DNA of 64,000 nucleotides from a virus (taxonomy: Duplodnaviria; Caudoviricetes), in IMG/VR virus record IMGVR_UViG_3300033075_001877, positions 6,842 through 70,841 of that record; one strand, 5' to 3'. A model generated the notes under the pieces. That model was given only the letters and a program-made list of their open reading frames with translations, was not told where the DNA came from and made no database searches. Position numbers and translations under genes: made by a program. Below are positions 38-56,389 of this stretch, one piece after another (position 1 is the first letter of the stretch; each line of letters begins with the position of its first letter).

Positions 38-955
38 ATGGCTGGCAACACCGACTTCCTCTACGACGTCGTGACGAACCGCATCATCGCGGCGCTCGAA
101 GCGGGCACCGTCCCCTGGCGCAAGCCCTGGGACCCAACCACGGGCTTCCCCCGGAGCACCTCCACGAAGTCGCCGTACCACGGCATCAACGTGCTGCTGC
201 TCGGCGGGGCCGCGATGGAGCACGGCTACGAGTCCCCGTGGTGGGGCACGTTCAACAACCTCAAGGCGCACGGCGGCTCGGTGCGCAAGGGCGCGAAGAC
301 GGAGATCGTCGTCTTCTGGAAGCGCCTCATCGTGGACGACAAGAACAACCCGGGTGAGAAGCGCATCGTGCCCATGCTGCGCTACTTCCGGGTGCTCAAC
401 GTCGAGCAGTGCGACTGGCCCGACGGGCTCCCCCCGCGCTTTCAGCCCGAGCCCCAGCGCGAGCACGAGCCCATCGAGGCGTGCCAGGCGCTGATCGACG
501 GCTACATCACGAACGGCCCTGGGCCCAAGGCCTCGTTCGGCTCGGATCGGGCGTGCTACATCCCGGCGCTCGACCGCATCGAGATGCCCGCGCTGGCGCA
601 GTTTCACTCGCCCGAGGCGTACTACGGCACCTTCTTCCACGAGATGGTGCACAGCACGGGCCACGCGTCGCGGCTCAAGCGCGACGGGGTGGTCTCCCCC
701 TCGGGCTTCGGCTCGCACGACTACTCGAAGGAGGAGCTCGTCGCCGAGATGGGCGCGGCCATGCTCTGCGCGATCGCCGGCATCGACGACCCGACCATCG
801 ACCAGTCGGCCGCGTACATCGCCAACTGGCTGAGCGCGCTACGCAACGACCGCAAGCTGCTCATCGCAGCCGGCGGGCAGGCGACGCGTGCCGTCGACGT
901 GGTGCGCGGCATCGTCGCCGACGAGGCCCCCGAGGTCGCGGAGGTGGCGGCATGA
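38..955 (+). CDS. ardC: ArdC-family antirestriction / ssDNA-binding protein (DUF1738 N-domain + zincin-like metallopeptidase domain)
   Basis: N-terminal 'VTNRIIAALEAGTVPWRKPW...YHGINVLLL...WWGTFN', HExxH 'HEMVHSTGH', 'YSKEELVAEMGAAML', 'SAAYIANWL'; SD-like GAAAGGA upstream. Confidence 0.88.
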   Translation: MAGNTDFLYDVVTNRIIAALEAGTVPWRKPWDPTTGFPRSTSTKSPYHGINVLLLGGAAMEHGYESPWWGTFNNLKAHGGSVRKGAKTEIVVFWKRLIVDDKNNPGEKRIVPMLRYFRVLNVEQCDWPDGLPPRFQPEPQREHEPIEACQALIDGYITNGPGPKASFGSDRACYIPALDRIEMPALAQFHSPEAYYGTFFHEMVHSTGHASRLKRDGVVSPSGFGSHDYSKEELVAEMGAAMLCAIAGIDDPTIDQSAAYIANWLSALRNDRKLLIAAGGQATRAVDVVRGIVADEAPEVAEVAA

Positions 956-17732: not shown

Positions 17733-17883
17733 ACCGACTCATCTCGCGCTTCGTCTACGAGCACGGCCTTTGACGGCCGGAACGTCGCGGTCGCCAGTTT
17801 GGCGACACTCGCATGGGCGCGCCGAGCGCTGATCTAGGGTCCATCACGCCCACCGAGTGGGCGCTGTCGACGAGAGGGAGAGC

Positions 17884-18264
17884 ATGAGACGATTCACGGC
17901 GATCAGCGTCGCCCTGCTGGCCGCGTGGCTGGCGGCGACGTTCGCCTTCACCACCGTGCAGGCGAGCGCCTGCAACGGCCCGGCATCGGGTGCCACAGGC
18001 TCGGGCGCGATGGGCTCGGGCTCCACGGGCCCCGGCTGCGTGCCGGCAACGACCCAGGCGCCGAGTACCACCGTGCTCCCAACCACGACCGCGGTTGGGA
18101 CGACGACGACCTCGAGCACCTCGACGACGACGGTGGCGCCCACCACCACGACCGTGCCCGCGACGACGACCACGGCGCCGGCAGGTGGCGCCGGGTCGGC
18201 CGTGGCAGGACGCACGGTCGAACTTCCGACTCCGGTCGAGATCCTTCCCCGCTTCACCGGATGA
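17884..18264 (+). CDS. secreted Thr-rich (mucin-like) protein ending in PRFTG
   Basis: Signal peptide 'MRRFTAISVALLAAWLAATFAFTTVQASA', Thr/Ser/Pro-rich core, C-terminal LPRFTG; GAGGGAG RBS. Confidence 0.72.
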   Translation: MRRFTAISVALLAAWLAATFAFTTVQASACNGPASGATGSGAMGSGSTGPGCVPATTQAPSTTVLPTTTAVGTTTTSSTSTTTVAPTTTTVPATTTTAPAGGAGSAVAGRTVELPTPVEILPRFTG

Positions 18265-39151: not shown

Positions 39152-40081
39152 TCACCAGCAGGTGATGATCACGAGCCCGCCACCGCCGTCGCCGCCGCGG
39201 CCACCAGTGACCCCGCCACCGCCGCCTGCGCCGCCGCACCCGTAGCCCCCGTCGCCGCCGCGGCCCCCGGTGCCGGCAGCGCCGTTCGTGCCGCCCCCGG
39301 TGCCGCCCTGGCCGCACATGAGCGGCGAGAACCGGAAGGTACCGGGGTTCCCGGCGCCGCCACCCGAGGCACCGCCGTTGATCCCGGTGAGGAACGAGTT
39401 GCCGGCCGGGATGGACTGGCCGCCGCCAGCGAAGTTCGTGTTCGCCGCCGGGGTCGTGCCACCACCTGCGCCACCGGTGGTGATCGCCGCCGCGAACGCG
39501 ACCGGGGCTACGCCGGCGGCGCCGCCGACAGCGCCTGCAGCGGCGCCGATGCACCCGACGGACGCTCCGAACGAGCCGAGTGCTCCGAGGAACCCGAGTG
39601 CTTGCGTCGCGACGGTGCCCGCGGCGCCGCCGGTGCCCGCCGCAGTGGACCCGCCGACGCCGCCACCGGCGTTCGCGGCGCCCGACGAGAGGAACGTGTT
39701 GCCAGCGGCCTGGGCAACAGGGAGGGCCTGGATGTAGGTGCGCGCGCCGGCGCCACCGGTGGAGCCCGTCGCGCCAGCGGCGCCGCCTGCGCCGCCCGGT
39801 GGGACGGTGAGGTGCAACGCGTCCGGGATCGCGTGCGCTGGCAGGACCAGCGATGCGGCCCCGCCGGACCCACCACCACCACCACCACCGCGCACCGTGC
39901 CCGTAGCGCCGGTCGACCCGCCGCCGCCGCCCGCGCCTGCGCCGAGGACCCACAGGTGCACGAACCGCACCCCGGACGGCTTCACCCACCGCTGGAACCC
40001 GGCGGTCCCACCGACCGGGGCCACCGGGTAGAAGACCTGCCGGTGCAGGATCTGCTCGGACGCGAACGGAGGAACGAGCAT
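39152..40081 (-). CDS. glycine-rich virion protein
   Basis: 'WVKPSGVRFVHLWVLGAGAGGGGG' start and 'GGDGGGGLVIITCW' end, typical of the phage glycine-rich domain. Confidence 0.78.
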   Translation of the reverse strand: MLVPPFASEQILHRQVFYPVAPVGGTAGFQRWVKPSGVRFVHLWVLGAGAGGGGGSTGATGTVRGGGGGGGSGGAASLVLPAHAIPDALHLTVPPGGAGGAAGATGSTGGAGARTYIQALPVAQAAGNTFLSSGAANAGGGVGGSTAAGTGGAAGTVATQALGFLGALGSFGASVGCIGAAAGAVGGAAGVAPVAFAAAITTGGAGGGTTPAANTNFAGGGQSIPAGNSFLTGINGGASGGGAGNPGTFRFSPLMCGQGGTGGGTNGAAGTGGRGGDGGYGCGGAGGGGGVTGGRGGDGGGGLVIITCW

Positions 40082-45597: not shown

Positions 45598-46305
45598 CTA
45601 CGATCCCCGTGCCAGCGGAGCCCTCTCTTCGACCAGGGAGCGCATGCGTTCTCCGTACCCGGACGCCGCCGTGTAGCGCGCGACCAGCTTCTCGCTGGCG
45701 ATCGAGCCGCGCCCGTGGGGTGCCGCGGGCGGGTGCCAGAGGTGCACGAGCGGCGCTCCGACGCGCCCGGGCGCGCCGTGGAGGGTCTTGAGGCACATCC
45801 CGAAGGAGATGTCCTCGCCCCCCCAGCCCTCGAAGCGCTCGTCCAGGCCGCGCACGTCGGCGTAGACCTCGCTGCGCACGACGACGATGCCGCCGCCCGG
45901 GATGCCTCGATAGGTGGGTCGCGTCAGCTTCGCGCGGTACGCGAGCTCGAAGTCTGAGCGGAACTGGGCGCTGAACAGGCGTGTGGCCGCCTCGGTGAGG
46001 CGGTAGACGTCGCCATGCGGCGTGCACCACGCTCGGCCCTCCTGGGCCCAGCGCACGGCCGTCTCGAGGTCCTCGGGCGGCACCACGGAGTCGGCGTCGG
46101 CCAGGATGACGATGTCGTGGTCAGCGGCGCGCGCCTCGGTGAAGGCCCGGTTGAGCGCGGCGGGCTTGTTCCAGGTCCCCTCGATGGGCTGGATCCACAC
46201 GTCCCAGGACGGATGGAAGTGCTCGTAGTGGCCCTCGACGTAGTGCGCGGCCCAGCCGCGCGCCTCGTCGAGGTGGGAGCTGACCGGGATCAGGACCGCG
46301 ACCAT
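45598..46305 (-). CDS. glycosyltransferase (GT-A; GT2/GT7-like C-terminus)
   Basis: DxD 'ILADADS'; 'GLDERFEGWGGEDISF'; start could be 46311 or 46314. Confidence 0.88.
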   Translation of the reverse strand: MVAVLIPVSSHLDEARGWAAHYVEGHYEHFHPSWDVWIQPIEGTWNKPAALNRAFTEARAADHDIVILADADSVVPPEDLETAVRWAQEGRAWCTPHGDVYRLTEAATRLFSAQFRSDFELAYRAKLTRPTYRGIPGGGIVVVRSEVYADVRGLDERFEGWGGEDISFGMCLKTLHGAPGRVGAPLVHLWHPPAAPHGRGSIASEKLVARYTAASGYGERMRSLVEERAPLARGS

Positions 46306-47132
46306 CGGCACCACGGCGCAGGATCGAGCACCATGCCGCTGTCGGTCGGCGACCGGTACCAGAAGTGCTCGCGGAAGACCTCCCGGAGCGCCTCCTCGCC
46401 GTGTTCGTCGATGATGCGACCGTAGGCGCGCCAGTGCGCGCCCTCGCTCTCGGGCAGGCTGGTCGCGCGGTACGCCGCGGCGCCGTTGCGCGCCTTGCGC
46501 ACCATCTGGTTCGCCGAGCGGTACGGGAAGTGGCGAATCTCGAGCGTGTCGGCCGAGTCGGGGACCAGCTGGGTCGGCAGCGTGACGCCGTGGTTGCCCT
46601 GGTGGATCACCGCGCCCGGCTCCCACCGGAAGGCGACCTTCGGCAGGCCGGCGCGCACCGCCTGGCGCCACCGCATCGCGAGGAATGGGTTGGAGTCCTC
46701 GCGATCGAGCAGCGTGCAGAAGTGGTTGAAGAGCGAGGCTCGGGCGACGCGCGTCGTGCGCGGCAGACCCTGCAGCACCATCGCGACGCGATCGCGCGCC
46801 AGCCAGAGCTCGTCCGCGTCGAAGGGCACGATCCAGGTGCCGATGCCGAACTCCTGGCCCACGCGATCGGCGAGCGCCGACATCTTGGCGCTCTGGTAGT
46901 ACGCCGGGTCGGGGTCGTCGGTGACCTCGAGCTGGAAGAGCTCCGCGGGGATCTGCCACGTGTCGGCGTAGACCGCAACCGTGTGCGTGAGCGCCTGCCG
47001 CGTGCCGTCGCGCGAGCCGTTGTCGATGACGAAGATCGCGTCGAGGCCCTCCTCCGCCATGTGGCGGAGGGTGTGCACGATGACGTCGGCTTCGTCCTTC
47101 ACCATGCAGATGCCGACCACTGCGGGGGTCAT
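46290..47132 (-). CDS. glycosyltransferase family 2
   Basis: 'MVKDEADVI', 'IDNGSRDGT', 'PFDADELW', 'IHQGNH', 'IRHFPYRS'. Confidence 0.9.
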   Translation of the reverse strand: MTPAVVGICMVKDEADVIVHTLRHMAEEGLDAIFVIDNGSRDGTRQALTHTVAVYADTWQIPAELFQLEVTDDPDPAYYQSAKMSALADRVGQEFGIGTWIVPFDADELWLARDRVAMVLQGLPRTTRVARASLFNHFCTLLDREDSNPFLAMRWRQAVRAGLPKVAFRWEPGAVIHQGNHGVTLPTQLVPDSADTLEIRHFPYRSANQMVRKARNGAAAYRATSLPESEGAHWRAYGRIIDEHGEEALREVFREHFWYRSPTDSGMVLDPAPWCRWSRS

Positions 47133-47761
47133 CCGCAGACCACCATCTGCGTCGCGGCCACGGAGGTCTGGTCGCTTCCCGGCACGAGCTCGTGGGAGAG
47201 GATCGTGAAGCCCGCGTCCTGCACGACCTTGGCGAACTCGCTCGATCTCCACTCGCGCACGTGGCAGAGGTTCTGGGGCGGGCCCATGTGGCCCTTGGGG
47301 TACTGCACCTCGCGCGCTGGCGTCGACAGCACGACGATCGGCTGGCCGAGGTTGGCGAGCTTGCGGAGGAGTCGGTCGGGGTCGAGGACGTGTTCGACCA
47401 CGTCCGCGCAGATCACGACCGCGGGCGGCGCGCCGGTGAGTGAGGCGCTGAGCGCGTCGCCGTCAAGGTCCGCCTCGTGCCACCGACCCCACGGATGGGT
47501 CTGGCGGCAGTGCTCGATGTTGTCGCCGTAGTCGACGCCCTCGATGATCCAGTCGGGGTGCGCCTCGTGCAGCTTCGCGAGCTTGTCGCCCCAGCCGCAG
47601 CCGACGTCGATGATGCGCTCGATGCCGAGCTCGACGGCAAGCCGCTCAGCCTCCTCGTACACCGCGGCCTGGAAGACGATGCCGCGCGTCGAGGTGACGT
47701 CGTCGAGGAAGTAGACCGGCCCGGGGTTCTCCCGATACTTGGCCGGCAGGTGGTACGCCAT
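47129..47761 (-). CDS. class I SAM-dependent methyltransferase (small-molecule/glycan type)
   Basis: 'IIDVGCGWG', 'ICADVVEHV', 'VLSTP', 'HVREW'; no DNA-methylase DPPY or PC motif. Confidence 0.88.
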   Translation of the reverse strand: MAYHLPAKYRENPGPVYFLDDVTSTRGIVFQAAVYEEAERLAVELGIERIIDVGCGWGDKLAKLHEAHPDWIIEGVDYGDNIEHCRQTHPWGRWHEADLDGDALSASLTGAPPAVVICADVVEHVLDPDRLLRKLANLGQPIVVLSTPAREVQYPKGHMGPPQNLCHVREWRSSEFAKVVQDAGFTILSHELVPGSDQTSVAATQMVVCG

Positions 47762-47762
47762 C

Positions 47763-48443
47763 TCAGTAGCCCTTCCCGGCGCGCTCGTCGCCGATGTGTT
47801 CGACCCACGGCGTGTCGTCGCGGGTGCCCCAGTAGGCGAAGACCGCGTCGGGGTCGTCGCGGATGATGCCGTGGCCGAAGAGGCCTTCGCTCTGCGCGCC
47901 CGCCGGCCACTCGCGCCGGCACAGCGTGCGGCGGAACATCGACGGGTTCGTGGTGAAGAAGAGGCGGTGCTCGAGCCACGCGTTGCCCAGGTGGTCGCGT
48001 CGCTCGGCGTAGGCCTCAGGGTGCTGCTCGATCACGCCACCGGCGAGTCGCTCGGTCGCGCTCCACGCCTGCCGGCGGAGCGCGATCTGCACGACGTCGG
48101 GGTTGCGTTCGAGCACGCCTTGCATCGAGAACAACTCGACGGGGCGGTTGAACGTGAAGTCGTCCTCGAGCAGGAAGACGTAGTCGGCGAGCTCGGCCCT
48201 GTTCGAGTCCAGCCACTCGAACGTGTGGCGGTACGCGCCGCCGAAGCCGCGCCGGTCGCCCTTGCCGATGTGCACGAAGTCGGGGTACTCCGCCATGAGC
48301 CGGCGCCGATGGAAGTGGTCGCCGGAGTCGTCGTGCATGATGCGGTGCGCGATCTCGCCCTCGAGCATCTCGCGCGCCGACGCGATCGTGCGGGCGAGCA
48401 CGTCGTCTCGCCCGTCGGTCATGACCACCAACGAAACGCTCAT
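47763..48443 (-). CDS. glycosyltransferase (GT-A/GT2-like)
   Basis: 'LVVMTDGR', 'MHDDSGD', 'FLLEDDFTF', 'FTTNPS'. Confidence 0.8.
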   Translation of the reverse strand: MSVSLVVMTDGRDDVLARTIASAREMLEGEIAHRIMHDDSGDHFHRRRLMAEYPDFVHIGKGDRRGFGGAYRHTFEWLDSNRAELADYVFLLEDDFTFNRPVELFSMQGVLERNPDVVQIALRRQAWSATERLAGGVIEQHPEAYAERRDHLGNAWLEHRLFFTTNPSMFRRTLCRREWPAGAQSEGLFGHGIIRDDPDAVFAYWGTRDDTPWVEHIGDERAGKGY

Positions 48444-49105
48444 CCCTGTTGAAGCTCCTGCGCTCTGCGCCAACTTTCGTTGGCTCGGATGATCTCCTCG
48501 AACAGCTCCTTCGGCCGGTCGATGTTGCGGTTGCGACCGTTCGCGTTCGTGGTCGCCTGGTAGATAGCGGAGGGGACGGCGCAGGTGTGCGCGCCGACCA
48601 TGATCGCTCGCATCCACAGCGCCCAGTCCTCCCATGCGCGCTCGGGGCCAAAGCTGCCGGCGCGCCAGAACAGATTGCGGTGAATCGCCGTGCCGATGAC
48701 CATCCAGTTGCCGTCGAGGATGGCATCGCGCACGTGCGCGCCGGGGCGTTTCGGCGTCAAGATTCGCGGCGCTTGCGCGTCGTATTGCACCGCGGGGTAG
48801 TAGAGGGCCCATGTGGCCGAAATCGGCCCAGGGGCCTCCATGCGCTCGTCGATCGCCTCACTCATGGCCGCGAGGTAGCCCGGCTCGAGTCGATCATCGG
48901 CGTCGAGGAAGATGAGGTAGTCGCCTTGGGCGCGCCACGCGGCGCCGTTGCGCGCCTCCTGCAGGGAGCGACTGTGCAGTGCAATGACCTCGACCTCGCT
49001 CGCGTCGAAGCCGCGTTGCGCCTGCACGCTCGCGCAGGCGCGCGTCTGCGCGAGCTCGTGCCACCACTCCTCGCCGAAGGTGCCCACGATGACCGAGAAC
49101 CTCAC
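48440..49105 (-). CDS. glycosyltransferase family 2
   Basis: 'ARNGAAW', 'LIFLDADD', 'AWEDWALW'. Confidence 0.88.
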   Translation of the reverse strand: MRFSVIVGTFGEEWWHELAQTRACASVQAQRGFDASEVEVIALHSRSLQEARNGAAWRAQGDYLIFLDADDRLEPGYLAAMSEAIDERMEAPGPISATWALYYPAVQYDAQAPRILTPKRPGAHVRDAILDGNWMVIGTAIHRNLFWRAGSFGPERAWEDWALWMRAIMVGAHTCAVPSAIYQATTNANGRNRNIDRPKELFEEIIRANESWRRAQELQQG

Positions 49106-49767
49106 ACGAACTCCCAGAGGCGCCGGCGCGAGCGGAAGAGCTTGCGGTCGGCCTCGAACCCGCTCAACCCGAGCTCGTAGACGCCGTCCATCTCGCTCTT
49201 GCGCCAGTGTGGGTGCAGGTGCTCGACGCGGCTCGACAGCGCCATGCGGAACGTGCGCCGGAAGCGCGCCGTCGCCACGAACTCGTCGTCCACGAAGTTG
49301 TGTGTGTAGCCCTCGTGCAAGAGCACCGAGGGGTCGTCGATCGAGCCCTGCTCGACGTACTCGCGCGCCACGAGCGAGTGCGTCGCGTGCTCGCCGCGCT
49401 TCACGCGGTCGTTCCCGAGATCGTTCGTGCCCACCACGCTCACCGACGCGCTGATGCGGTTGGACGCGGCGTCCAGCCACCCGGGGTGGAAGTGGAGGTC
49501 GTCAGCGCCAAGGAAGAGGAGCGGCGCACTCGTCTCGCGCACGCCGAGGTTGATCTTGCGGGCGTAGTCACCGGGCGCGCGCTCGCCGGGGAGCACGAGG
49601 TGCGCCGCTCCGACGCGCTCGAGCTCCGCCCGCGTCAGCAGGTCGAACTCGGACGCGATGAACCAGACGTGCGCACCCGGCGTGCCGGCGAGGGCATCGG
49701 CGAGGGCACGTTCGATGCGATGAGGGCGGCCGAGGACCGGGATGAGGATGTCGACGGCGGGGGGCAC
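49102..49767 (-). CDS. glycosyltransferase family 2
   Basis: 'ILIPVLGRP', 'YARKINLG', 'FLGADDLHF', 'HNFVDDEF', 'VEHLHP'. Confidence 0.85.
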   Translation of the reverse strand: MPPAVDILIPVLGRPHRIERALADALAGTPGAHVWFIASEFDLLTRAELERVGAAHLVLPGERAPGDYARKINLGVRETSAPLLFLGADDLHFHPGWLDAASNRISASVSVVGTNDLGNDRVKRGEHATHSLVAREYVEQGSIDDPSVLLHEGYTHNFVDDEFVATARFRRTFRMALSSRVEHLHPHWRKSEMDGVYELGLSGFEADRKLFRSRRRLWEFV

Positions 49768-49773
49768 GGGGCG

Positions 49774-49782
49774 AGCTTACGC
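49774..49782 (-). promoter_or_regulatory. putative -10 (GCG-TAAGCT) for a leaderless transcript of the glycosyltransferase block
   Basis: TANNNT ends 6 nt before the GTG at 49767; intergenic; no SD. Confidence 0.55.
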
Positions 49783-49806: not shown

Positions 49807-50835
49807 TCAGGCGTCGGCGGCCTGACGCTTCCAGCTCGCGTAGCCGGCGACCACGCCCGCCGGGTTGAACGTGAGGAGGCCGAAGCGCTGGAACCGACGG
49901 GTCTGCAGGTTGCGCCCGAGGCCGAGCACGTCGCCCACCTCGCCGACGACGCCGAGATCGATGATGTCCGACATCGCCCAGCGCAGCCCGGCGACGCCGT
50001 AGACCGTCTCGAAGGCCGTGTTGTAGCCGGCGTCGAGCTCGTAGCCGACGAAGCCGGCGTCGGCGATGATGCGCGTGCCGAGCGGGGTCACGAAGCCGTC
50101 GATGGACGGCTCGTAGACGGCGACGTCCTGCGCCACGGCGTTCGTGAGCATGCCGGGCGACATGAGGATGTGGTACTCGCTGTGGCCGAGCATGCGGTAG
50201 CTCGTCAGCCCGGCGACCACCTGCATCGCGTTCTCGATCGCCGCAATGACGGTCACGATGCTCTTCGCGGTGCCGACCACGTTCAGGCTCCCGCTGTCGG
50301 CCACCTGGTTCACGTTGCGGAAGCCGATGTCCGGCGAGTCCGGGCCCGCCTCGAGCTGACGCGCGAACCACGGGCTCGAGTAGGCATCGATCAGGGCTCG
50401 CATGAGCGCCGGGTCGTCGGTGCTGCGGTCGAGGGCGATCGAGGGCACGTCGAGCTCGATCATGATGGGAGCGAAGTAGTCACCAGCCAGGCACTTCGCG
50501 ATGTCGAGGGTGGCCGGCTGCATCACCGTGTCGCCGACGTCGTCGGGGTCGATGCAGCCCGTCGGGCTGTCGGCCCCGTCGCTGATGACCGGCGACTCGT
50601 TCTGGCCGAACGCGGTGGCCATCTGGGCCCCCGGGCCGGCCGCCATGATGTCGCGCACCGTCACGCCGTTCAGCCAGCGCATCGCCGAGTCCGTGCTCGA
50701 CGGGAAGACGTCCTCCGGGAGGCGCGCCACCGTGTGGAGGAACGTGCCGGCACGGCGCAGCGCGGGCAACGGCGCGTCGTAGATCGGGGCCAGACGGGGG
50801 ACGGTGTAGACCTGCGAAGTCGCCATGGTCGGCAT
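49807..50835 (-). CDS. second capsid protein (candidate pentamer/minor capsid protein)
   Basis: Directly after the major capsid gene; 'RWLNGV' and C-terminal 'YGVAGLRWAMSDI...NLQTRRFQRFGLLTFNP' suggest an HK97-like fold. Confidence 0.6.
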   Translation of the reverse strand: MPTMATSQVYTVPRLAPIYDAPLPALRRAGTFLHTVARLPEDVFPSSTDSAMRWLNGVTVRDIMAAGPGAQMATAFGQNESPVISDGADSPTGCIDPDDVGDTVMQPATLDIAKCLAGDYFAPIMIELDVPSIALDRSTDDPALMRALIDAYSSPWFARQLEAGPDSPDIGFRNVNQVADSGSLNVVGTAKSIVTVIAAIENAMQVVAGLTSYRMLGHSEYHILMSPGMLTNAVAQDVAVYEPSIDGFVTPLGTRIIADAGFVGYELDAGYNTAFETVYGVAGLRWAMSDIIDLGVVGEVGDVLGLGRNLQTRRFQRFGLLTFNPAGVVAGYASWKRQAADA

Positions 50836-50889
50836 CCCACTCCGCCACGCGTCGGAATGTCAACTCCCGTGCCCACGCCGTGGGAACGC

Positions 50890-50926
50890 GAAGAGGCCCC
50901 GGCGGGGGGAGTGCCGGGGCCTCTTC
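50890..50926 (-). terminator. hairpin after the major capsid gene
   Basis: 14-bp perfect stem GAAGAGGCCCCGGC / GCCGGGGCCTCTTC, 9-nt loop. Confidence 0.75.
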
Positions 50927-50948
50927 TACCTGTCAGGCGTGCTCAGGA

Positions 50949-52613
50949 TCAGGACTGCGTGGTCTCGCAGTCCAGCGTCACGTCGGCGACCTGGTGGCCG
51001 CCGGGGCACACGTCCACGAGCGTGAGCTCGAGGGAGCGGGCGCCGAAGGCGACGAGGCCCTCGAAGGACTCCCAGAACATCGTGAAGTTGTTCTTGGAGA
51101 GCGAGGTCGTGTCGCGCACCGTGTTGCCGCCGACGCCGAGGTTGAGCTCGCCGCCGTCGAGCCGGCGGAAGTTGCCGGTCGGCGTCATGAGCATCTTGAC
51201 CGTGGTCGGCCACTGCGGGATCGCCGAGCCGTTCACCAGGCTCGACAGGGTCGGCCAGCCCGACGCGGACTCGTAGGTCCAGGTCGGGTTGACGCCCGCC
51301 GACGTGAAGGCCGCGGTGATCTCCTTCGACGCCGACACGATGTCGCCGAGCGACACGTTGTCGGTGCGCTTGCGGCGCAGCTGGTCGACCACGAGCATCG
51401 TGCGCACGTGGCGCGGCAGCCAGCAGTCGAAGCCGATGTCGTCGCCGTAGCGCTCCTGCTCCTTGTACGACTGGATCGTGCGGAGCAGGGTCTCGAGGAG
51501 GGCGATCGACATGCCCACGTTGATGCCGTCGCTGTGCACCTTGATGGTGTTCACGTCGGTGCGCATCGCGTTGAGCAGCGTCCGCTCGCCGAGCTGGGCC
51601 TGGGTGGCCTGCAGGCGGTTGAGGAACGCCGCCACGAGCTCGGGGTAGGTCATGGCGGCCATGTTGGTGACCGTCATGCAGCGGTAGATGCCGTAGATGT
51701 CGTAGTCCTCCGGCGAGCCGCAGGTGATGACGGCGCAGTCGGCCTTCGTCGCGGCGTCGTCGGCGTCGTCGTCGCGGGTCCAGATGCCCGTGCCGTCGCT
51801 GATATCGCTCAGGCGCGGGGTCGGGTAGATCGAGACGCCACCGCGGGGCGCGCCGTAGCTCGCGAGCGACGCCGCGACGGGCCGCACGACCGAGGAGCCG
51901 AAGCTCAGGTCGTAGATCGGCTCGCGCGGGGCGCAGATGGCCGCCTGGACGTCGGCGTCGAGGAAGTCTGCGCCGCCGAAGATGGCCATGTCGTGGTCGA
52001 AGTTGCCGTTGAGCTGGCGATCGTCCGGCACGGTGCCGAGCACGCGGGCGACCACGAACTTCTCCGCCGTGTTGGCGTTGCTCGTGGCCTTGATGCGTGC
52101 GGAGAACGCCTTGGCGATGTCCGCCATCGACTCGAGCGGCGCGCCGGCGTCGTAGCCGCCGCCGGTCACCGCCGCGACGACGCGGGACGGGTTCCGGGCC
52201 GGTGCGGGTGTGCTCGATGCGGCGGGGGTCGCGCCGGCGGAGGCCGCGAGCGCGCCGGCCGACGGGGCCGCGGGCGCCGGGGCGGGCGGGGTCGAGGCGG
52301 CATCGGCCGCTGCGGCGGGTGCCGGGTCGGTGGTGGCCTCGTCGGCCGGCGCTGCGGGCGCCGAGTCGGCGGCCGGCTCGTCGAACGAGTCGAAGAGGCC
52401 CGACGCGTCGCCGTCGGCGGAGTCGAGCTCGGCGATGCGAGCGTTCACGGCGTCGGCGAACTCGCGGGCCTCGCGCAGGCGAGCGACGAGCTCGGGCGTG
52501 CGGGGCAGCGAGCGGGCGCCGAGCACCGCGGTGCGGATGCTCGCGGCGAGCGCCGACAGCTCGGTGCGGGTCAGGCCGCTGAGGTCCTGGGGACGCTCGG
52601 GAAGCTCGAACAT
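50949..52613 (-). CDS. major capsid protein with N-terminal scaffold-like helix and Ala/Pro linker
   Basis: After the protease; strong RBS; 'AAICAPREPIYD', 'APRGGVSI', 'NNFTMFWESFEG'; followed by a terminator. Confidence 0.88.
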   Translation of the reverse strand: MFELPERPQDLSGLTRTELSALAASIRTAVLGARSLPRTPELVARLREAREFADAVNARIAELDSADGDASGLFDSFDEPAADSAPAAPADEATTDPAPAAAADAASTPPAPAPAAPSAGALAASAGATPAASSTPAPARNPSRVVAAVTGGGYDAGAPLESMADIAKAFSARIKATSNANTAEKFVVARVLGTVPDDRQLNGNFDHDMAIFGGADFLDADVQAAICAPREPIYDLSFGSSVVRPVAASLASYGAPRGGVSIYPTPRLSDISDGTGIWTRDDDADDAATKADCAVITCGSPEDYDIYGIYRCMTVTNMAAMTYPELVAAFLNRLQATQAQLGERTLLNAMRTDVNTIKVHSDGINVGMSIALLETLLRTIQSYKEQERYGDDIGFDCWLPRHVRTMLVVDQLRRKRTDNVSLGDIVSASKEITAAFTSAGVNPTWTYESASGWPTLSSLVNGSAIPQWPTTVKMLMTPTGNFRRLDGGELNLGVGGNTVRDTTSLSKNNFTMFWESFEGLVAFGARSLELTLVDVCPGGHQVADVTLDCETTQS

Positions 52614-55900: not shown

Positions 55901-56389
55901 CTACACGCGGGCGTCAACCCGCAGCCCGAGCGCGAGGAGCTCGGCCATCCGTGCCGGCACGGCGTTGCCGATGAGCTTGAACTGCATCGTGCGCGTGCCC
56001 TCGAAGCGGTAGTCGGGCGGGAAGTCCTGCAGGGCGGCAGCCTCGGCGGGCGTGAGGCGCACGGCGTCGGGGCCGCGGCGCTCGGCGTAGTGCAGTCGGC
56101 CGGCAGCGATGTCGTCGGCATTGAGCTTGTGCCCTGGCGGGTGGTTCCGGGCGCTGGACGCCACCGTGGTCGCCGGGGCGTCGAAGGTCCACGCCGGGAC
56201 CTCGCGGCCGCGCCACATGCGCGCCTTGCTTGTGACGGCGTTGGCGGGCTCGGTGATCGGGACCCAGTCGCGCCCGCGCTTGCCGTCGGCCGTGTCGTGC
56301 CCGAGATCGTCCTCGCGCGGCCAGCCCACGTGCGATACGAAGCGCCCCGGCTCGCGCTCGGCGAAGACGGTCGGGTCCGAGTTGCTCAT
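55901..56389 (-). CDS. C5-cytosine DNA methyltransferase, C-terminal half (TRD, motifs IX-X)
   Basis: 'RLTPAEAAALQDFP.DY.F', 'IGNAVP'; frame open only up to 56452; ATG 56389 has GGAG upstream. Confidence 0.82.
   Translation of the reverse strand: MSNSDPTVFAEREPGRFVSHVGWPREDDLGHDTADGKRGRDWVPITEPANAVTSKARMWRGREVPAWTFDAPATTVASSARNHPPGHKLNADDIAAGRLHYAERRGPDAVRLTPAEAAALQDFPPDYRFEGTRTMQFKLIGNAVPARMAELLALGLRVDARV

Follow-up and report, generated by a model that had tools for sequence, protein, structure and literature searches.

What does a phage modify with five glycosyltransferases (GTs) and a methyltransferase whose genes stand close to that of its capsid? This question was raised by an uncultured phage of about 71 kb with a GC content of about 69%, studied here in a window of 64,000 nucleotides that covers bases 6842-70841 of the 70,841-bp IMG/VR virus record IMGVR_UViG_3300033075_001877, rated complete by CheckV. 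Six consecutive minus-strand genes, here called G1 to G6, occupy positions 49767-45598 of the window; the gene models place them, tightly coupled, between the capsid region and the head-tail adaptor gene, as an earlier note made from the sequence alone had described. We consider that this cassette is probably a phage-encoded virion O-glycosylation system with a glycan methyltransferase, acting on the particle, and we base this reading on co-occurrence and homology. The earlier note had also proposed virion glycosylation and glycan methylation. This core proved to be its best supported part, through the head-neck position of the cassette, the terminal serine of the capsid protein, the likeness of G5 to protein-glycosylating enzymes and the methyltransferases of mycobacteriophages Che8 and Corndog; its details held less well.

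Enzymes encoded by the cassette

Gene models were obtained from a GC3 frame plot, a start-codon listing and a codon-usage gene finder. The genes overlap by 4 nt at G1/G2, G2/G3 and G4/G5 and by 16-25 nt at G5/G6, a gap of 1 nt separates G3 from G4, and the ATG of the adaptor gene lies 10 nt past the stop codon of G6. The labels proposed earlier, five GTs and one methyltransferase, were right in substance according to Pfam, PHROGs and the names of homologues, but their order is slightly different (Table 1).

Since phmmer searches of the PDB with single proteins were uninformative for G1 to G3, profiles were used instead. The G1 profile matched GT2 enzymes (best E 2.5e-4), while Pfam gave no match for G1. 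More than 1900 homologues of G1 were found at 45-60% identity, some of them named "glycosyltransferase family A" in their sources, and in their alignment ADD 88-90 is conserved, with A88 and D90 invariant and D89 almost so, while VEH.H 181-185 varies only slightly and only at L184. G2 keeps LDADD 67-71 and ED 159-160. For G3 the PHROG match, "galactosyl transferase", is clear and the GT2 match in Pfam is weak; TDGR 9-12 and ExD 93-95 are invariant, and the AlphaFold2 model (predicted local distance difference test score, pLDDT, 95) has the GT-A enzymes RmlT, TarP and GnT-I as its top Foldseek matches. The AlphaFold2 model of G5 (pLDDT 93.5) also shows a GT-A fold, and the nearest solved relatives of G5 are GmaR, SunS and ThuS at 15-18% identity. 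G6 carries DAD 73-75, GWGxED 163-168 and H191.

Thus G1, G2, G3, G5 and G6 all show GT-A or GT2-like features, through their motifs, Pfam or PHROG matches and the models of G3 and G5. Degenerate DxD sites were looked for and not seen: the acidic motifs are intact in all five GTs across 45-94 homologues from related loci. G4 is a class I S-adenosylmethionine (SAM)-dependent methyltransferase by its motif I (IDVGCGWG) and its family matches, which besides the one in Table 1 include Methyltransf_12, 25, 11 and 31; weak matches to the O-methyltransferases UbiG and Hen1 were also found. No hydrophobic or membrane segment was detected in G1 to G6, the maximum 19-residue Kyte-Doolittle mean being at most 1.54. 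Judged from these sequences and models, the cassette enzymes look active and soluble.

Distribution, gene order and genomic position

With the G1 profile, relatives were found on 264 IMG/VR contigs and in 24 species genomes, mostly of Actinomycetota, including a Parafrankia soli provirus, Solirubrobacterales, Acidimicrobiia and Nostocoides. Conservation of the gene neighbourhood, which the earlier note had named as a check, was clear: besides the window, 46 fetched viral or proviral loci contain the genes in the constant order G1-G2-G3-(slot)-G5-G6, always in the head-neck region. About half of the loci have only the five GT genes, in 3.3 kb.

The main variable slot of the cassette lies between G3 and G5, and a methyltransferase fills it, before G5, in 16 of the 47 cassettes. 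Two only distantly related Methyltransf_23 lineages were found there, one in the window and locus L018, where the orthologue is 50% identical to G4 in the same slot and shares its motif I, and the other in 14 loci of the L006/L007 type. BLASTP between the lineages gave E values of 0.002 to 0.02, and identity within one lineage is 47%. That two lineages occupy one slot argues that methylation is functionally linked to the cassette GTs. About half of the cassettes have no methyltransferase.

Through clustering of neighbour genes and PHROG scans of the cluster representatives, we found that the cassette always occupies, in the same orientation, the head-neck section of the late operon. In small siphovirus-like contigs the order is terminase, portal (phrog_104), protease, major head protein, adaptor Ad1, cassette, neck and tail genes, and tape measure. 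Two arrangements occur in the clade of the window: the cassette either separates the gene of the 442-aa head protein (p442) from the capsid gene or, in the window and locus L010, stands between the genes of the capsid protein and the adaptor. The capsid genes adjoining the cassette span six PHROG families (283, 10, 1328, 1650, 777 and 267). By this comparison of sequences the cassette is a portable conserved module. Considering that it moved among dissimilar phages, yet is always co-oriented at the head-neck junction, the simplest explanation would be that it acts on the particle.

In three loci (L045, L028 and L046) the G5 homologue has one in-frame stop codon in an otherwise well-aligned gene; sequencing error, pseudogene or recoding is possible.

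C-terminal serine of the capsid proteins

The capsid protein ends in serine, usually Gly-Ser, in 28 of the 29 cassette loci with an identified capsid gene. A terminal serine is rare in other proteins encoded at these loci (portal, terminase, protease, tape measure and the like), where 3 of 79 have it.

As a control, capsid relatives were fetched regardless of the cassette, and distinct sequences with adequate flanks were counted. The phrog_777-type capsids, to which that of the window belongs, comprised 5 sequences with terminal serine and a GT, 2 with serine and no GT, none with a GT and another terminal residue, and 27 with neither. The corresponding numbers were 13, 15, 0 and 23 for phrog_283-type capsids and 13, 4, 4 and 17 for phrog_10-type capsids. 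The four phrog_10-type capsids that occur with a GT and lack the serine end in TST, TSA, ASA and, in one case, a frameshift artefact. Minimal pairs were seen in the capsid family of the window, with the tail GCCP in close relatives lacking the cassette and CCPS, CCHS and CCDTVGS in relatives that have it. A pooled Fisher test over the three families gave 3e-11; relatedness inflates this value, since each capsid tree shows only about four changes in the presence of the cassette.

The same ending was found further downstream. Ends of the form [G/A/S]-S occur in 18% of the open reading frames (ORFs) for neck and tail proteins downstream of the capsid gene in GT-bearing loci vs 6% in loci with no GT; the value is 2% where there is neither a GT nor a serine-ending capsid.

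Seven phrog_283-type phages (L202, L204, L198, L205, L199, L212 and L238) have capsids ending in -GS or -SS and neck and tail ORFs enriched likewise, and no cassette was found near their capsid genes. Such cassette-free phages may use another GT family or a host enzyme, or may carry no glycan.

A single-protein search of IMG/VR found no relatives of the capsid protein, and alignment seeds were needed; one alignment, A4, was too diverse to seed the scan. Our literature search found no paper on a C-terminal serine glycosylation motif in phages.

Comparison with known systems

To our knowledge, glycosylation of the virion has been demonstrated in no more than a few mycobacteriophages, and there it alters antibody recognition. 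GmaR is the flagellin O-GlcNAc transferase of Listeria, and SunS and ThuS are S/O-glycosyltransferases of glycocins.

Che8 gp108-110 and Corndog gp35-38 are reported as virion O-glycosylation systems (Freeman et al. 2023, Cell Host Microbe, as cited in PMC12363180, PMC12619734 and PMC13313380), and PMC12619734, citing Freeman 2023, places the Che8 and Corndog glycans at the C termini of the capsid and tail tube proteins. The Che8 capsid ends in TGS and its tube in DGS; the Corndog capsid ends in VGS and its tube in GDS. The capsid of the window is likewise serine-ended, whereas its tail tube lacks a terminal serine. In Che8 gp108 a GT2 enzyme and a TylF-type methyltransferase are fused, and Corndog gp35 is a methyltransferase of the same type (PF05711 and PF13578 matches); GTs plus an O-methyltransferase are therefore a known architecture. 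This supports the core of the system proposed in the earlier note, but the combination is not new as an idea.

The likeness to Che8 and Corndog extends to soluble phage-encoded GT-A enzymes together with O-methyltransferase function, as predicted for the window, and to Corndog also by position, gp35-38 lying within the head operon between portal and protease. The comparison with GTs of glycosylated actinophages, also suggested earlier, gave matches for two enzymes: G6 is 25-26% identical to Che8 gp109 (E 1e-8) and Corndog gp37 (E 7e-8), and G2 is weakly similar to the N-terminal GT2 domain of Che8 gp108 (E 5e-6). Differences are also evident. The window has five GTs vs two or three, and G1, G3 and G5 have no detectable counterpart in Che8 and Corndog. 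G3 is at best remotely related to the GT25-type proteins Che8 gp110, Corndog gp38 and Phendrix gp80 (hhalign probability 23%), and hhalign found no relation of the G5 and G3 families to Corndog gp36. In a tblastn search G1 had no relative in 50,697 deposited phage genomes, which further separates the cassette from Che8 and Corndog. Beyond the known architecture, the cassette is distinguished by this particular family of five GTs, by how far it has spread, by a slot in which methyltransferases are interchangeable and by the association with the capsid serine.

The Gordonia phages Phendrix and GodonK (Godonkavirus) are distantly related to the window phage, as judged from capsid, p442 and adaptor (27-46% identity). 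Their GTs gp79-gp80 lie in the structural operon, between the adaptor and major tail genes, and G2 is weakly similar to Phendrix gp79 (E 2e-6). They differ from the window in having two GTs only (GT2 and GT25-like), no methyltransferase and another operon position. In Phendrix (MN096369, 8461-12277) a terminal -GS is shared by four head proteins in a row, namely the capsid hexamer protein, gp75, gp76 and the head-to-tail adaptor, and two GT genes follow; in Arthrobacter phage Atuin, which is related to Phendrix, GT genes are absent from this place and the corresponding proteins all lack a terminal serine. Phendrix would be a ready cultured test case.

GmaR, SunS and ThuS, which G5 resembles, glycosylate polypeptides directly. 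However, G5 lacks their extra acceptor-binding or TPR regions, and other GT-A enzymes (GalS1 and WrtF) score about equally against G5 by Z.

The only match of G5 among deposited phages is the metagenomic "Caudovirales GX15bay" (MK557849), an uncultured soil phage with a seven-gene cluster of multiple GTs and a methyltransferase, one gene of which is 41% identical to G5. Unlike the cassette, this cluster precedes the terminase gene instead of standing at the head-neck junction, and it has no relative of G1. The likely capsid protein of GX15bay ends in NLAP, without serine, so the related cluster may do something else. It was published as carbohydrate auxiliary metabolic genes and interpreted in terms of host carbon metabolism (PMC6460857). 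An "epimerase" was seen among the tail genes of GX15bay (L089 / L343).

The cassette does not resemble the Gtr-type serotype-conversion cassettes (GtrA/GtrB/GtrC) in membrane components, as G1 to G6 contain no hydrophobic segment.

Proposed function

From the above we infer the acceptor, the order of the enzymes, the methyl acceptor and any benefit. The cassette would be expressed late and would serve, in the cytoplasm, to O-glycosylate proteins of the phage's own particle. One enzyme would put the first sugar on a structural protein, and the GmaR/SunS-like GT2 enzyme G5 is the likeliest candidate; the likeliest acceptor site would be the C-terminal serine of the major capsid protein. G1, G2, G3 and G6 would then lengthen or branch the glycan, and G4 would O-methylate a sugar, adding 14 Da, probably as a terminal cap. 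Nucleotide-sugar genes had been noted as absent, and searches of the whole 70.8-kb record for NTP_transferase and Epimerase were indeed negative, so the donors would be nucleotide sugars of the host. The benefit could be shielding of the particle, its stability or its adsorption.

Two other groups of acceptors, put forward in the earlier note, found less support. For the Ser/Thr-rich fibre proteins, the evidence points to the capsid C-terminal serine instead; the fibres are possible acceptors, with no specific support. The N-terminus of the Thr-rich secreted protein (17857-18264) is of the signal or lipoprotein type, and this protein would therefore leave the cytoplasm, where the soluble cassette enzymes work. 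This 135-aa protein shows a signal/lipobox-like N-terminus (TTVQASAC), a long Thr/Ser/Pro/Ala-rich tract and the end LPRFTG; it looks like an exported lipoprotein, possibly O-mannosylated by the host, rather than a substrate of the cassette.

Alternative explanations

The enzymes might act instead on a host envelope polymer (a wall teichoic-acid-like polymer, arabinogalactan, lipoglycan or capsule) during infection or lysogeny, blocking superinfection or altering the cell surface in the manner of the prophage-encoded TarP of Staphylococcus aureus. TarP and RmlT, both soluble GT-A enzymes with wall teichoic acid as their acceptor, are among the best fold matches of G3; these matches, however, are generic for GT-A, with template-modelling (TM) scores of about 0.6 and 10-15% identity. 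The G1 profile matches GT2 enzymes of lipid-linked oligosaccharides and some copies of the cassette lie in proviruses, as in Parafrankia soli, yet the cassette is always co-oriented in the late head-neck operon and never in a lysogeny or moron position, and it has no membrane, flippase or polyprenol-linked components. The AMG publication on GX15bay, the only GenBank record with a related cluster (PMC6460857), also speaks for this explanation, which leaves the serine ends of the linked capsid proteins unaccounted for. We judge modification of the envelope to be unlikely. Less likely still is a glycan that the enzymes would assemble on hypermodified bases of the phage DNA as an escape from restriction. 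Phage GTs, multi-GT sets included, do glycosylate DNA (Pyle et al. 2024, as cited in PMC12619734), the window phage invests in anti-restriction through several DNA methylases and an anti-restriction protein, and the closest cultured homologue of G6, gp80 of Streptomyces phage Frankenweenie, sits in a replication module. The complete 70.8-kb record, however, has no thymidylate-synthase-like or dNMP hydroxymethylase gene; the PF00303 search of the 70,841-bp record had a control that was positive in 10 of 14 genomes. In the window phage the cassette stands in the structural operon and not in the replication module, which shows only helicase, Erf, initiator, exonuclease and DNA methylases, and the link with the capsid serine is again unexplained. 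A third possibility is that G5 and its partners glycosylate a small secreted glycocin-like peptide or another non-virion protein of phage or host, considering that the best structural and sequence relatives of G5 include the glycocin glycosyltransferases SunS and ThuS. No precursor peptide and no export or maturation genes were found in or beside the cassette in the window and the 46 related loci, and the conserved neighbours are capsid and adaptor genes; we give this explanation as little credence as that of DNA modification.

Virion O-glycosylation itself has to be weighed against several observations. The rule of the terminal serine works in one direction only: many serine-ending capsids have no detectable GT nearby, and in five serine-ending cassette-free records (L202, L204, L251, L238 and L199) no match to the GT2 family PF00535 or the GT25 family PF01755 exceeded the threshold, so a terminal serine does not predict these GT families. 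The capsid of cassette locus L079, ending in VSTL, is the sole exception among the 29. Tests on independent pairs were without power, having 2-4 contrasts with about four cassette changes per family tree. In the window itself the capsid ends in -QS and not -GS, and the major tail protein, which forms the tube, ends in -SAT. G4 belongs to Methyltransf_23 and not, as in Che8 and Corndog, to the TylF type (Methyltransf_24). The TarP and RmlT matches of G3 and the position of the Frankenweenie homologue of G6 count on this side as well.

Operon context and other genes of the window

Every gene between 40 and 56 kb of the window lies on the minus strand (Table 1). The capsid protein is 24-29% identical to the "major capsid hexamer protein" of Gordonia, Arthrobacter and Microbacterium phages. 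Directly after its gene, the RNA fold of 50830-50960 (-65.4 kcal/mol, z -2.6) contains a perfect 14-bp stem without a U tract. This hairpin probably acts as an attenuator or a terminator ahead of the cassette and of the 342-aa gene that precedes it; as an attenuator it would likely set the ratio of capsid to downstream gene expression.

The cassette had been described as a self-contained operon with a -10 element of its own and another for the adaptor gene. These putative elements are only TANNNT words, TAAGCT 6 nt before the GTG of G1 and TAGGAT 7 nt before the ATG of the adaptor gene, and a sigma-70 consensus scan found 0 sites, a result uninformative for actinobacterial or leaderless promoters. 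Self-containment is doubtful: because the block runs without a gap into the adaptor gene and has the strong hairpin upstream, it belongs to the late structural operon and is not an independent unit.

The 342-aa protein encoded between the capsid gene and the cassette had zero matches in Pfam, PHROG and NCBIfam. It was considered as a second capsid protein; BLASTP showed no similarity to the capsid protein, and the idea of two capsid genes is therefore without sequence support. A megablast of window positions 44-53 kb against deposited phages gave no match.

Between the adaptor and major tail genes stand five Ser/Thr-rich fibre-like genes, an unusually high number of candidates for decoration or fibre proteins. 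Among them is the gene of a 309-aa protein with a glycine-rich domain and a Gly-rich tail. Several DNA-methylation and anti-restriction functions are encoded by the window phage.

Table 1. Positions of the cassette genes, their neighbours and other features mentioned in the text (window coordinates unless a locus is named)
Feature	Position	Strand	Description
Portal	55860-54034	minus	
442-aa head protein (p442)	54031-52703	minus	
Major capsid protein, 554 aa	50949-52613	minus	"hexamer-type"; ends ...CETTQS; phrog_777, E 4e-50
14-bp GC-rich hairpin	50890-50926	minus	directly after capsid stop codon; RNA fold
342-aa protein	49807-50835	minus	between capsid gene and cassette; family matches: none
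G1, predicted GT-A glycosyltransferase, 221 aa	49102-49767	minus	some homologues named glycosyltransferase; GT2 profile match
G2, predicted GT2 glycosyltransferase, 221 aa	48440-49105	minus	PF00535 (Glycos_transf_2), E 4e-8; phrog_14775
G3, predicted GT-A glycosyltransferase, 226 aa	47763-48443	minus	weak Glycos_transf_2; phrog_3047, E 7e-15
G4, predicted class I SAM-dependent methyltransferase, 210 aa	47129-47761	minus	PF13489 (Methyltransf_23), E 2e-11
G5, predicted GT2 glycosyltransferase, 280 aa	46290-47132	minus	Glyco_tranf_2_4; DNGSxDGT, DADE 105-108
G6, predicted GT2/GT7-like glycosyltransferase, 238 aa	45598-46314	minus	PF02709 (Glyco_transf_7C), PF13641, PF00535; phrog_1721
Head-tail adaptor, 357 aa	44514-45587	minus	phrog_783, E 1e-30; phrog_1084
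309-aa protein	39152-40081	minus	PF21722
Major tail protein, 229 aa	38030-38719	minus	ends ...GLVSAT; phrog_792, E 3e-21
Anti-restriction protein and C5 DNA methylase fragment (C-terminal end)	38-955 (plus), 55901-56389 (minus)		phrog_7245, E 2e-75; PF00145
135-aa Thr-rich protein	17857-18264	plus	
Slot methyltransferase, L006	L006:12075-12701		
Slot methyltransferase, L007	L007:3029-3688		
Slot methyltransferase, L018	L018:11969-12586		orthologue of G4
G5 homologue with in-frame stop, L045	L045:7393-8166		
G5 homologue with in-frame stop, L028	L028:2948-3715		

Implications

A wider proposal can be made tentatively, and we would put its chances at somewhat less than even. The C-terminal -(G/A)-Ser-COOH on capsid, neck and tail proteins might be a general, portable glycosylation tag in actinobacterial phages, read by the five-GT cassette; G5 might then represent a new family of C-terminal-serine O-glycosyltransferases, with an interchangeable methyltransferase capping the glycan.

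Virion glycosylation would extend to a large set of uncultured phages of Actinomycetota, with a larger and different set of enzymes. The presence of the cassette and the terminal serine can be scored in any phage genome, and the predicted acceptor is concrete and cheap to test. The finding also speaks against the habit of annotating viral glycosyltransferases of this kind as auxiliary metabolic genes for carbon cycling. If the proposal is true, glycan-coated virions would be common among soil phages and predictable from a serine-ending capsid together with the cassette.

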